From: an uncultured archaeon
GTDB lineage: Archaea; Asgardarchaeota; Thorarchaeia; Thorarchaeales; Thorarchaeaceae
Reading direction: 5' to 3'
Assembly (NCBI GenBank): GCA_964354495.1
Contig: CAYHAA010000001.1
Coordinates: forward strand, 457,049-489,048
Length of the DNA stretch: 32,000 bases
Below, in pieces: positions 7,674-9,800 of this stretch; within the stretch, counting starts at the first letter, position 1; every line of letters starts with the position of its first letter. Below the pieces are notes generated by a model that saw only the letters and a list, made by a program, of their open reading frames with translations, did no database searches and was not told the DNA's origin. A program made the translations under genes and the position numbers.

Positions 7674-9800
7674 GTGAGGAAGAGTCTAGGAGCGATTCTC
7701 CTTGTCTTGGTGCTTGCCTTAGGACTTGCCCCGATAACAGTAGTGGCACATATTCCAGGTGCTGATCCTAATTTGGACAGTGTATATGTTGATGTCATTG
7801 TCATGCCCAATGGACGAATCAATGTCACGTACTGGATGACCTTCACCGCGGCGAGTGGAGGGCTGGGCGGATTTGATCTTAAAGGCATTGAAGAAACAAC
7901 CCTTGCTGACACCGCGCGCGCATATGTAGAATGGGGAGGGAATCGCTACGACCTCATTGTCGGAGAAATCTCGAAAGGCTACACCCTTGATTGGACTCCC
8001 AGAACACCCGAAGGGCAGCAGGTACTCGTCGTATTTGGCTACTTTGGCCTTAGTCGAGTAGTTGCGCTGACAACATCACCAATCTACGGAGACCTCGGAG
8101 TTCTCAATTGGGCGCCTGTTCAATGGTCAATTGCAGTTGACTATGAGCAAGTTCAGGTGATATATCCCATTGAGCTCAATTCTTCCTGGATTGAGCCCTC
8201 TCATGGAGTGACTCCTGAGGGTTCAGAGTATGCAGGGTATATTCAAGATGAGACTCAGGGTCTCTGGAGGGATTCTTCGAAATACGGATTCGATAGCATT
8301 GACTTGCTTGCATATCCCTATGACATTGCAGCAAGCCCTCGCTTTTTTACAGTCAGTATGGCCTTCAACGGTCTAAGTGCCTATGATCACTTTAGAGTCT
8401 TCCATTACACAAATTGGACATTCTATTCTGCGCTCAATGAATCCGGAGCGCTCGGCCACACAGTTAGTCGCTATGCAGAAACGCAAGCGAACACTCAATT
8501 CGACCTGCAGCTCAATGTCTTCAATTATGGTGACTTGCTACTTGAGGATGTCACAATCCTGATGACACTCCCTGAGAATCTGACGCTTGTGTCGGGGTCA
8601 GTTTCAACCTCTGTCGGTGTTCTGACTGGTGGCGAAGTGCGGTATCAAGTCTATTCGTTGGTTCCTGCCAATGTGGCTGCTGTGCTTACAATCAACTTTC
8701 TAGTCACTTCTTCATCATTGAACTCAACTGACTGGCAATCATTCTCGGTATACATCTATGTTCAGGAGTACATTCCGCCCCTCATTCCACCTTCTTACTG
8801 GATATTCATCATAGGCGGTGCGTTTGCTTTAGGCATCGTCTACTACGGATATAGAAAAGTGACAGGATCATATGGTGCAAAGTGGGAGGTTGATGATACA
8901 ACCTACACATATTCCACCCCTGAAATTGCAATACAGACGTTCGGAGAGCCAGGCGCCGTAGCTGATCTTGATCCAATCGAGTCGGCATTCTTCGTGAACA
9001 CAACTCGACAAAAACTTGTATCCATGATCATGATGTCGTGCGTTCGAAAAGGTGCGATCAGGGTTCTGTCAACGGATCCCTTGAAGGTTTCTGTGACTGG
9101 CCTCCAGTTCCAAGAACTGACTTACTACGAGGAGAAGTTCATAGCCGCCATTGACGATGACGAGCTAGACCCAGGGAAAACTGATGCAATGCTCGACGAG
9201 CTCGCGGACAAAGTCCAAGAGAAGGCTTGGAAGGCTGATTTTGAAGCCACAAAGGAACACCATGATGAGATGGTCGAGGGTGCTTGGAGAGAACTGGAGG
9301 ATGAGCCCACGCTCGATGGACGTACTGATTACTACTTCAATCAGCAATACCATGACCGTGGGTGGGCTTGGTACTGGCTGTACATGCACCCACGCCATGA
9401 CACTGACATAGGAAGGGTCTTCAGCAGCCCCGGGACTGCAATCGCTCCGCAGCAAATTCCTGACTGGTTCTCTGATCTGTCAGAGGCAACAGGCAATGCC
9501 GTTTCAAGTGTTGGGCGAGTAGTAGGGGATGTAGCCACGACTACAGGTCAGATTATGACCAACGTGACCAACACAATAGGTAGTGTCTTGCAGAGTGTGG
9601 GCAATATCATCACTGAGCCTCTCAAGCCACTGATTGAAGGGACAAGTAGATGTGTTTCCCACGATGCCTGCCACAGTGCTTGTGTTTCCCATGACGCCTG
9701 TCATAGTGCATGTCACAGCGCTTGTCACAGTGCCTGCGTCTGTCATAGCGCCTGCCACAGCGCATGTCACAGTGCGTGTGTGTCTGGAGGCTTCAGGTAG
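7674..9800 (+). CDS. DUF2207-like single-pass membrane protein with an Ig-like domain and a C-terminal Cys/His (CHSA) repeat tail
   Basis: GTG after GAGGGTGA. Signal peptide, then DUF2207-like N-terminus (VDVIVMPNGRINVTYWMTF) and a CARDB/DUF11-like segment (LNVFNYG..LEDVTILMTLPENL). TM at about aa 375-393 followed by RK. DUF2207-like LDPIESAFF...VRKGAI...LTYYE segment, then a 49-aa tail with 11 Cys. Confidence 0.8.
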   Translation: MRKSLGAILLVLVLALGLAPITVVAHIPGADPNLDSVYVDVIVMPNGRINVTYWMTFTAASGGLGGFDLKGIEETTLADTARAYVEWGGNRYDLIVGEISKGYTLDWTPRTPEGQQVLVVFGYFGLSRVVALTTSPIYGDLGVLNWAPVQWSIAVDYEQVQVIYPIELNSSWIEPSHGVTPEGSEYAGYIQDETQGLWRDSSKYGFDSIDLLAYPYDIAASPRFFTVSMAFNGLSAYDHFRVFHYTNWTFYSALNESGALGHTVSRYAETQANTQFDLQLNVFNYGDLLLEDVTILMTLPENLTLVSGSVSTSVGVLTGGEVRYQVYSLVPANVAAVLTINFLVTSSSLNSTDWQSFSVYIYVQEYIPPLIPPSYWIFIIGGAFALGIVYYGYRKVTGSYGAKWEVDDTTYTYSTPEIAIQTFGEPGAVADLDPIESAFFVNTTRQKLVSMIMMSCVRKGAIRVLSTDPLKVSVTGLQFQELTYYEEKFIAAIDDDELDPGKTDAMLDELADKVQEKAWKADFEATKEHHDEMVEGAWRELEDEPTLDGRTDYYFNQQYHDRGWAWYWLYMHPRHDTDIGRVFSSPGTAIAPQQIPDWFSDLSEATGNAVSSVGRVVGDVATTTGQIMTNVTNTIGSVLQSVGNIITEPLKPLIEGTSRCVSHDACHSACVSHDACHSACHSACHSACVCHSACHSACHSACVSGGFR
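9651..9797 (+). repeat. Coding tandem repeat (CHSA)x7 plus (CVSHDA)x2
   Basis: Reads CVSHDA CHSA CVSHDA CHSA CHSA CHSA CV CHSA CHSA CHSA CVSGGFR. The 12-nt units vary mainly at third codon positions. Confidence 0.95.

Follow-up and report, generated by a model that had tools for sequence, protein, structure and literature searches.

Small secreted peptides are, to our knowledge, the setting in which radical SAM maturases have chiefly been described, and whole-protein targets are few: QHNDH, MCR and, as of 2026, CrpA. The CXXX-repeat (TIGR04115/TIGR04117) and ACGX-repeat (TIGR04340) systems are known to us only as in silico predictions. In Methanococcus voltae, CrpC, an RRE-radical SAM-SPASM enzyme that represents NCBIfam TIGR04463 ('rSAM_vs_C_rich'), installs thioether cross-links of the ranthionine type on the cysteine-rich C-terminal repeats of the 28.8-kDa protein CrpA (PMC13692751, 2026). 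The locus described here lies in a stretch of 32,000 nucleotides from an uncultured archaeon of the class Thorarchaeia (the window). It resembles the crp locus in that a gene for an RRE-radical SAM-SPASM enzyme stands beside that for a full-size protein with a cysteine-rich, repetitive C-terminus (the host protein), and in that the cluster includes a small accessory protein; for Crp, modification of a protein and not of a small peptide has been shown. The features of the locus are as follows (positions in the window):

5657..7081, minus strand: PqqD/RRE-radical SAM-SPASM enzyme, 474 aa, divergent from the host gene (Pfam Radical_SAM 2e-27, PqqD 3.5e-7, SPASM 3.7e-4); proposed tail maturase
5792..6001, minus strand: SPASM region of the enzyme, residues about 361-430, CX2CX5CX3C and further invariant Cys, from sequence and alignment
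6662..6685, minus strand: CX3CX2C radical SAM cluster motif (C133, C137, C140), invariant in 21 family enzymes
6797..6967, minus strand: PqqD-like RRE domain of the enzyme, residues 39-95
7204..7608, plus strand: soluble 134-aa protein without a known family, its gene upstream of the host gene; putative accessory protein, present in all Thorarchaeial loci and three bacterial loci
7674..9800, plus strand: host gene P0001, 708 aa, stop codon TAG at 9798-9800; signal peptide, beta-rich ectodomain, one transmembrane helix, cytoplasmic domain and tail
7761..8768, plus strand: ectodomain, residues about 30-365, DUF2207-N-like plus DUF11/CARDB-like beta-sandwiches (AF2 pLDDT about 88)
8790..8864, plus strand: single transmembrane helix, residues 373-397, followed by Arg/Lys (AF2 model helix and sequence)
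8916..9443, plus strand: conserved, predicted cytoplasmic domain, residues about 415-590 (profile matches at positions 410-590)
9459..9650, plus strand: linker, residues 596-659, predicted to form a long helix; the conserved IITEPLKPLIEGTSR at its end directly precedes the tail
9651..9797, plus strand: Cys/His repeat tail, residues 660-708, from sequence and conservation; proposed modified 'core'
9801..10556, plus strand: calcineurin-like metallophosphoesterase, its ATG abutting the TAG of the host gene

The sequence of the enzyme shows the complete set of parts expected of a peptide maturase, namely an RRE domain (PF05402, 30.9 bits versus a cut-off of 23.4), the CX3CX2C motif within a Radical_SAM domain (96.8 bits versus 29.5) and a SPASM motif CX2CX5CX3C, directly read as CKECEHFAYCYGAC. 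The Pfam SPASM model gives 21.2 bits, slightly below its cut-off of 21.5, and C361, C379, C416, C419, C425 and C429 are invariant among 21 relatives. Among solved structures, PqqE and SkfB are nearest to it by sequence. When the enzyme was compared with NCBIfam, it did not reach the cut-off of any named family, and the best of these scores belonged to AhbD, NirJ and PqqE and not to sacti- or ranthisynthases.

The differences from the systems introduced above begin with the enzyme, which attains 58.3 bits against TIGR04463 (cut-off 525), and extend to its presumed target: whereas CrpA is soluble and carries ten 17-residue repeats with C-x-x-D/Q motifs, the unrelated host protein is a single-pass membrane protein of 708 residues that ends in four-residue units of the type A-C-H-S. 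What the locus has in common with the CXXX-repeat (maturase TIGR04115, target TIGR04117) and ACGX-repeat (TIGR04340) systems is a presumed radical SAM/SPASM target in which Cys recurs at intervals of four residues, but the enzyme reaches only 22 of the 350 bits required for TIGR04115 (rSAM_Cxxx_rpt) and 96.1 of the 400 bits required for TIGR04340, and the targets of these systems are small free peptides and not the end of a membrane protein. TIGR04117 (Syntroph_Cxxx, cut-off 50 bits) did not match the tail, be it in a search of its own genome at E-values up to 10 or in a direct scan. The combination of RRE, radical SAM and SPASM or Twitch domains with cysteine-rich substrates is also found in PapB/PapA, CteB/SCIFF, SkfB, AlbA and QhpD/QhpC, and the two CVSHD units of the tail fit the Cys-X3-Asp spacing of PapB. 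However, the enzyme stays far below the cut-offs of ranthi- and sactipeptide maturases (e.g., PapB, 86 of 340; StsB, 99 of 625) and, unlike in the corresponding RiPPs, there is no leader-core precursor, as the cysteine-rich stretch forms the end of a large membrane protein, nor was a conserved protease or exporter detected in the neighborhood of the gene pair in Thorarchaeial loci and four metagenome contigs.

Neither Pfam nor NCBIfam returned a family for the tail, for the cytoplasmic domain, for distantly related tail proteins or for the small accessory proteins. Our searches of the literature on ACGX, CXXX-repeat or cysteine-repeat membrane proteins retrieved nothing relevant to the tail system, so that it has neither a Pfam or NCBIfam family nor, as far as we could find, a describing paper. 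Of the orthologous Thorarchaeial loci, only about half have the metallophosphoesterase gene downstream; it is therefore probably not a core part of the system and was rejected as such.

Host protein and tail

Orthologs of the host gene are present in 63 of the 87 genomes of the class. In its build of signal peptide, beta-sandwich ectodomain, transmembrane helix and cytoplasmic tail, the host protein is similar to DUF2207 (PF09972) proteins and to ribophorin I/OST1. Foldseek retrieved DUF2207, DUF11 and ribophorin I proteins, with a DUF2207 protein as the top AFDB match, but the TM-scores of the top matches to DUF2207 and ribophorin I amount to only 0.17-0.35. Among 14 orthologs, Pfam detected DUF11 in 13 and gave weak matches to DUF2207 in three (best E-value 2.9e-4). 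P0001 itself does not match DUF2207, and one distant member with a CHxA tail scores 24.1 bits (gathering score 24.4), such that DUF2207 is sub-threshold or absent in the host family. A further difference from these proteins is the conserved cytoplasmic domain and cysteine tail, for which no Pfam or NCBIfam model exists; such tails are not treated in the papers on DUF2207. Because Arg/Lys residues follow the single transmembrane helix, the positive-inside rule predicts that the C-terminal domain and the tail reside on the cytoplasmic side. The cytoplasmic domain is the part common to all distant family members and possibly serves as the docking domain for the enzyme. In the G048/L001 ortholog, the host gene contains an in-frame TAG. 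Reading it as pyrrolysine was rejected (neither PylS nor PylD was found above cut-off), and we prefer a sequencing error or a recent nonsense mutation as the explanation.

The tail is the C-terminal end of the open reading frame 7674..9800 (plus strand, 708 aa), and positions 9651-9797 read CVSHDA-CHSA-CVSHDA-(CHSA)3-CV-(CHSA)3-CVSGGFR, followed by TAG. A preliminary description of the DNA had counted 11 Cys and 9 His in 49 residues (22% Cys and 18% His, regularly spaced) and seven CHSA units with varied synonymous codons, in exact agreement with the window at 9651-9800. Tandem Repeats Finder detected only weak arrays in the tail DNA (period 30, 82% matches; period 12, 68% matches and 16% indels), and thus the DNA copies have diverged while the peptide remained unchanged. 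AF2 draws helices for the tail with a pLDDT of 30-40, a model unusable for the idea that Cys and His line a helical face. A search of the whole 3.3-Mb genome did not yield a second tail of this kind.

The same tail peptide is encoded in more than 50 other assemblies. When the window is compared with an ortholog of 67% identity (L001), the tail exhibits 25 synonymous and no non-synonymous differences, with a pN of 0.20 for the whole protein. Among 38 distinct DNA versions of the tail, 45 of the 49 residues are invariant, the median third-position identity is 0.45, almost all synonymous codons are in use and Ser alternates between AGY and TCN codons. The number of repeats, which the preliminary description had suggested comparing, is fixed among orthologs, the sole loss being that of one 10-aa unit in one genus. 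The tail is thus under extreme purifying selection that acts on the peptide, strongly bearing out the earlier claim of selection on the peptide as opposed to recent slippage. A slippage-prone, low-complexity end devoid of specific function, or an artefact of assembly, would be in line with the period-12/30 tandem signal and with the fact that several public contigs of orthologs stop just before the tail. Such an origin is, however, extremely improbable and was refuted by the substitution pattern, the constancy of residues and unit number with saturated third positions in the 38 versions, and independent contigs: those of two other studies (X1, and X5 with a depth of 32) span the tail without indels and differ at six positions within it, every one of them a synonymous third position. 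The possibility of an assembly artefact, raised in the preliminary description, is thereby disposed of.

Tail types and pairing with the enzyme

At 50% identity, the host family falls into 759 clusters, which are distributed over Asgard archaea, other archaea and a large number of bacterial phyla; among cultured bacteria, Desulfobulbus alkaliphilus DSM 24258 carries the gene pair. Two types of C-terminus occur in the family, (ACHx)n-ACVSGG.. and CACACACAGCACACAGGGR. The latter, CA type (CACACA...GGGR) is the commoner one and does not contain any His. The extreme C-terminus is conserved as ...C[VA][SG]GG plus one or two residues.

In every Thorarchaeial locus with sufficient flanking sequence, the gene for the enzyme adjoins the tail gene. 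The two are also neighbors in 15 of 20 loci of other Asgard archaea, in 53 of 64 bacterial loci drawn from many phyla, and in all four metagenome contigs, where the other neighbors are unrelated and stop and start codons usually overlap. Where the two genes are not adjacent, an ortholog of the enzyme is encoded elsewhere in the same genome. G058, an apparent case of a tail protein lacking the enzyme, is uninformative as a scaffold gap interrupts the gene. Genus by genus within the class, both genes are missing from the same nearly complete genomes, and family by family within the phylum, 13 families have both and the remaining families neither. In the phylogenetic tree, the enzymes encoded beside CHxA tails and those beside CACACA tails form separate clades with a support of 100/100, and this split cuts across taxonomy: one genome in the order of the window has a CA-type pair. 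Selection on the peptide, the pairing and co-distribution of the two genes and the correspondence of enzyme clades to tail types are direct observations. The co-inheritance of the two genes shows a functional link, which is not in itself an enzyme-substrate relation.

This evidence also bears on a reading in which the unmodified tail is a multi-metal or Fe-S site, metallothionein-like or a redox or metal sensor on the cytoplasmic face, and the enzyme is linked to it in another way, e.g., by serving as its redox or cluster partner or by having as its substrate a different molecule that the host protein binds. The high content and regular spacing of Cys and His make the composition appear compatible with metallothionein-like peptides, the sister tail type has metallothionein-like CxC runs, near-invariance suits a defined coordination geometry, and a metal-related role is suspected for CrpA by its authors, too (PMC13692751). 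On the other hand, His ligation cannot be the common function of the family because the commoner CA-type tails are free of His, and a dedicated RRE-bearing radical SAM-SPASM enzyme that tracks the tail type so strictly is hard to explain unless it acts directly on the tail. We therefore regard an unmodified metal site as unlikely, albeit one to be kept in mind; a tail that is modified could also bind metal. Some cytochromes have haem c motifs with the variant spacing CX3CH, and the overlapping CX3CH motifs of the tail could be taken for such sites. The tail, however, lacks CXXCH, is predicted to be cytoplasmic whereas haem c is attached outside the cytoplasm, and has homologs of the CA type without His. 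The binding of c-type haem, already considered unlikely in the preliminary description, thus has next to no probability.

Possible modification of the tail

We lean, with some reservation, towards the view that the neighboring dedicated enzyme has the cytoplasmic tail as its substrate ('core peptide'), into which it would probably introduce cysteine cross-links of the thioether type. Radical SAM modification had been the default reading from the outset, and it is favored by the genomic evidence. In its support we count the selection on a tail of fixed length with saturated synonymous change, the maturase parts of the enzyme, the gene pairing, the phyletic match, the split in the enzyme tree and the CrpC/CrpA precedent. 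RiPP cores are usually variable, and measured against this a structural, cofactor-like or metal-binding role fits the near-invariance of the tail at least as well. Further points against are the scores of the enzyme, which stay under the cut-offs of all named thioether-forming families, and the CxC and Cx3C spacing, which together with His resembles metal-binding peptides. A leader-like recognition sequence was not identified.

If the tail is indeed modified, the host protein would first be inserted into the membrane with its beta-rich domain outside, whereas the C-terminal domain and tail would face the cytoplasm, the compartment in which the Fe-S enzyme is active. The enzyme may then dock either on the conserved cytoplasmic domain or on the residues directly preceding the tail; a complex prediction for the enzyme and host residues 600-708 gave a score of 0.00 and a partner pLDDT of 23, values that carry no weight in either direction. 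Its 5'-deoxyadenosyl radical would abstract hydrogen, and the regularly spaced cysteines would form intramolecular cross-links, most likely thioethers to a nearby residue with the loss of 2 Da each. The product would be a rigid tail of fixed length on a membrane protein, with a downstream role in metal binding, redox chemistry or recognition.

The enzyme might also act on the tail by a different chemistry, such as conversion of Cys to formylglycine or dehydroalanine, the formation of C-C or C-S bonds with His, epimerisation, methylation or processing that releases a peptide or cofactor. We deem this quite unlikely: the highest, albeit sub-threshold, scores for AhbD, NirJ and PqqE rather than for sacti- or ranthisynthases would agree with it and the conserved C-terminal ...C[VA][SG]GG could mark C-terminal processing, but a conserved protease or exporter is missing from the neighborhood in the Thorarchaeial loci and four metagenome contigs, and the characterised radical SAM-SPASM enzymes named here that act on cysteine-rich repeats all make thioethers (PMC13692751).

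Going beyond the substrate reading, we tentatively consider it possible, though on balance doubtful, that the modified tail is a protein-tethered, RiPP-like, fixed ladder of cysteine-derived cross-links that may hold metal and whose role, at the cytoplasmic face of a conserved DUF2207/ribophorin-like membrane protein, would be that of a cofactor or signalling module, and that the two-gene system is ancient, laterally mobile in bacteria and archaea, and occurs in two chemical flavors (ACHx and CA). With hundreds of clusters in archaea and many bacterial phyla, the system may be far more widespread than the known whole-protein targets of radical SAM enzymes. The proposed target belongs to a large membrane protein, of which it is the cytoplasmic tail, and this tail is more strictly conserved than almost any other part of these genomes. 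For biochemists working on radical SAM enzymes and RiPPs the pair provides a clear, testable combination of putative substrate and enzyme that may reveal new cysteine chemistry or a protein-derived metal site. If the cross-links are indeed thioethers, the one candidate acceptor that C-H-x-A and C-A-C-A tails share is the Ala at the third position after Cys.

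Conservation of the Cys/His tail as a peptide

The tail, its host gene and the adjacent enzyme gene lie in the window as follows:

7674..9800, + strand: host gene (ORF) for P0001, 708 aa, with the tail as its C-terminal end
9651-9797, + strand: Cys/His repeat tail (translation), CVSHDA-CHSA-CVSHDA-(CHSA)3-CV-(CHSA)3-CVSGGFR, then TAG
5657..7081, - strand: PqqD/RRE-radical SAM-SPASM enzyme, 474 aa, divergent from the host gene

Translation yields 49 residues with 11 Cys and 9 His, as read in the preliminary description, and the seven CHSA units are indeed written with differing synonymous codons. 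Tandem Repeats Finder detected only degenerate arrays in the tail DNA (period 30, 82% matches; period 12, 68% matches), and when the complete 3.3-Mb genome was scanned in six frames, no other long ORF with a tail of the CHSA kind appeared. The nearest database relatives of P0001 are hypothetical proteins from Thorarchaeota MAGs. When the 49 tail codons were compared with those of L001, an ortholog 67% identical to P0001, 25 synonymous and no non-synonymous differences were found; for the whole protein, pN is 0.20 and synonymous sites are saturated. Orthologs are present in 63 of the 87 Thorarchaeia genomes searched (15 of 17 genera), and across all loci of the class that were read the tail, and with it the repeat number, is constant in length and nearly constant in its letters, the sole length variant being the loss of a 10-residue unit in one genus (L036). 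Among 38 distinct DNA versions, 45 of the 49 positions are invariant, almost all possible synonymous codons occur, Ser alternates between AGY and TCN, and third-position identity has a median of 0.45; in the 50 codons directly upstream, just 6 positions are invariant. The earlier proposal that selection acts on the peptide and that recent slippage is not involved is thereby upheld. Contigs from two unrelated studies cross the tail without indels, and all their differences within it are synonymous and at third positions. An assembly artefact, which the preliminary description had considered, is thus refuted, as is slippage, by fixed length, conservation of the peptide alone and indel-free independent contigs. 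Given this invariance despite synonymous change, the tail is real, fixed in length and under extreme purifying selection as a peptide.

Several ortholog contigs break at, or shortly before, the repeat. One public ENA contig ends in a Nextera adapter just ahead of the tail (L002:2489-2544), which is why the deposited ortholog P0003 ends in a spurious LSLIHI. In L001 (positions 4371-4373; the same locus as L014, genome G048) an in-frame TAG replaces the CAG for Gln-640 of the window, beyond which the reading frame stays open and the tail is complete and identical; in the public annotation the gene is divided at this codon. Pyrrolysine was ruled out because neither PylS nor PylD is encoded in this genome, and the codon therefore probably stems from an error in sequencing or from a nonsense mutation that arose very recently.

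Architecture of the host protein

An AF2 model of P0001, built with 14 orthologs, starts with a signal-like N-terminal helix and comprises:

Residues 30-365: beta-rich ectodomain, confident (pLDDT about 88)
Residues 373-397: single TM helix
Residues 430-550: predicted cytoplasmic domain, moderate confidence

A long helix and then the tail (pLDDT 30-40) follow. As Arg and Lys stand directly after the TM helix, we infer that the C-terminal half is cytoplasmic. Pfam gave DUF11 below threshold and, in some orthologs, weak DUF2207-N; the conserved cytoplasmic domain and the tail were covered by no Pfam or NCBIfam model in our scans. Foldseek ranked DUF2207 proteins, DUF11 proteins and ribophorin I/OST1 highest, at low TM-scores throughout. 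For residues 30-397 (window 7761-8864) the eukaryotic oligosaccharyltransferase subunit ribophorin I/OST1 (6s7t_E, 8b6l_O, 6ezn_A) led in the PDB and DUF2207 proteins in AFDB, with TM-scores of just 0.17-0.35; Pfam Ribophorin_I did not match P0001. The modelled resemblance may be relevant to Asgard 'ribophorin-like' proteins.

Two tail types and their association with the enzyme

A profile of the 14 orthologs, searched against 1.84 billion proteins, retrieved 759 clusters at 50% identity, from sources including Asgard archaea, Aigarchaeota and a bacterium. Among the best 148 representatives, 73 end in the CA type (...CACACACAGCACACAGGGR or close variants), 27 in (ACHx)n-ACVSGG.. and one in a hybrid of both; the remainder are mostly truncated, and no name beyond 'hypothetical protein' was found among the 148. 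Both types share Ala-Cys dipeptides, Ala at Cys+3 and a terminal C[VA][SG]GG. CHSA-like repeats were also sought across archaeal and bacterial genomes as the DNA pattern (CHxA)3C in contigs representing one genome per species. This yielded at least 118 stretches; 80 loci were read, and among the matches listed 64 of these code for family proteins that end in a CHxA tail. They represent numerous bacterial phyla (Chloroflexota, Planctomycetota, Spirochaetota, Myxococcota, Acidobacteriota, Gemmatimonadota, Omnitrophota, Bacillota, Pseudomonadota and others), and one is from a cultured organism, Desulfobulbus alkaliphilus DSM 24258.

Every Thorarchaeial locus with sufficient flanking sequence groups the enzyme gene and the host gene with a third gene, for a 131-134-aa protein. 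Within the class, enzyme and tail protein have identical genus-by-genus distributions, and both are absent from the nearly complete genomes G009, G011, G014, G015, G016 and G018; an apparent tail-bearing genome without the enzyme (G058) proved to have a scaffold gap. Phylum-wide (400 genomes), once matches confined to the beta-sandwich region are discounted, profiles of the two proteins agree family by family: 13 families match both, and the rest match neither. The enzyme adjoins the tail gene in 15 of 20 loci from other Asgard families, and in the five genomes tested with non-adjacent cases an ortholog is encoded elsewhere. In four of four metagenome contigs whose remaining neighbours are unrelated, it is the next gene after the tail gene, its start overlapping, or nearly overlapping, the stop of that gene. 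Among the 64 mostly bacterial CHxA loci it is adjacent in 53, nearly always as the next gene downstream. The enzyme tree splits 100/100 into a clade beside CHxA tails and one beside CA tails, regardless of taxonomy; Asgard and bacterial lineages are intermixed in the former, implying that the pair moves as a unit. Such pairing across domains and changing gene contexts is strong evidence that tail gene and enzyme form a functional unit, with the proviso that related genomes are not independent. Co-inheritance by itself is no proof of an enzyme-substrate relation.

Tails laid out as in Thorarchaeia, with CV[S]HDA units and ...ACVCHSACHSACHSACVS.., recur in Chloroflexota (L078, L085, L087, L141, L148, L151), Sumerlaeota (L137) and Spirochaetota (L092), and the enzymes of these loci belong to the closest relatives outside Thorarchaeia. 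Tail layout and enzyme relationship suggest that the pair has passed laterally between bacteria and Asgard archaea. In some CA-type loci two paralogous family enzymes flank the tail gene (L034:2-1231 and 4786-6111, G001; L072).

Proposed tail modification and neighbouring genes

The enzyme carries a PqqD-like RRE (30.9 bits, over the Pfam cut-off), a Radical_SAM domain (2e-27) with a CX3CX2C motif, and CX2CX5CX3C in its SPASM region, an architecture that is exactly that of maturases acting on Cys-rich peptides. Its closest solved relatives are PqqE and SkfB. It scored below every NCBIfam cut-off (highest for AhbD, 153 of 500, and PqqE, 125 of 381; TIGR04463, 58 of 525; TIGR04115, 22 of 350), and the tail tested as no member of the TIGR04117 target family. 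CrpC, which belongs to an orphan family of RRE-rSAM-SPASM enzymes, puts thioether (ranthionine) cross-links on C-terminal Cys repeats of the 28.8-kDa CrpA (2026 paper, PMC13692751). By this analogy we propose that a private enzyme would cross-link the cytoplasmic tail of its host protein in a RiPP-like radical SAM modification; chemistry and biological role are both inferred. That the tail is its substrate and receives thioether-type links is, in our estimate, somewhat better than an even chance; a different chemistry on the same substrate appears improbable. Slightly less improbable, yet still unlikely, is an unmodified metal or redox site. The near-invariance of the tail would be compatible with a metal site of defined geometry or with a structure resembling a cofactor, perhaps one that arises through modification. 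CA tails lack His, so that His-dependent chemistry, including haem, cannot be the family-wide function, in line with the earlier view that c-type haem is unlikely.

The nearest systems to the proposed thioether cross-linking are Crp and the predicted CXXX-repeat and ACGX systems; by score the enzyme, and for the CXXX-repeat system also the tail, falls outside these families. In contrast to them, the target here is the nearly invariant tail of a large membrane protein, and two tail flavours have matching enzyme clades. A literature search found no published description of the system.

The 134-aa soluble protein encoded upstream of the host gene (window 7204-7608) matched no family; relatives occur in all Thorarchaeial loci and three bacterial CHxA loci (L130:3606-3995, L096, L135; e.g., Aminicenantes), and the protein is a possible accessory factor. 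A 459-aa multi-pass membrane protein (window 12361-13740; DUF6159 and weak choline-transporter-like matches) appears not to be linked to the tail system. A calcineurin-like metallophosphoesterase gene (9801-10556) follows the host gene in about half of the Thorarchaeial loci only; its ATG directly abuts the host TAG (window 9798-9803), and the L001 counterparts overlap in an ATGA. CA-type loci have a different conserved small protein upstream (L034:2838-3218, L073:5607-5960, L076:5622-5987), of 117-126 aa with two TM helices, a CxxC...CxxC zinc ribbon and the ending EEPxW; these proteins are related to each other (pairwise blastp 1e-9 to 1e-22).
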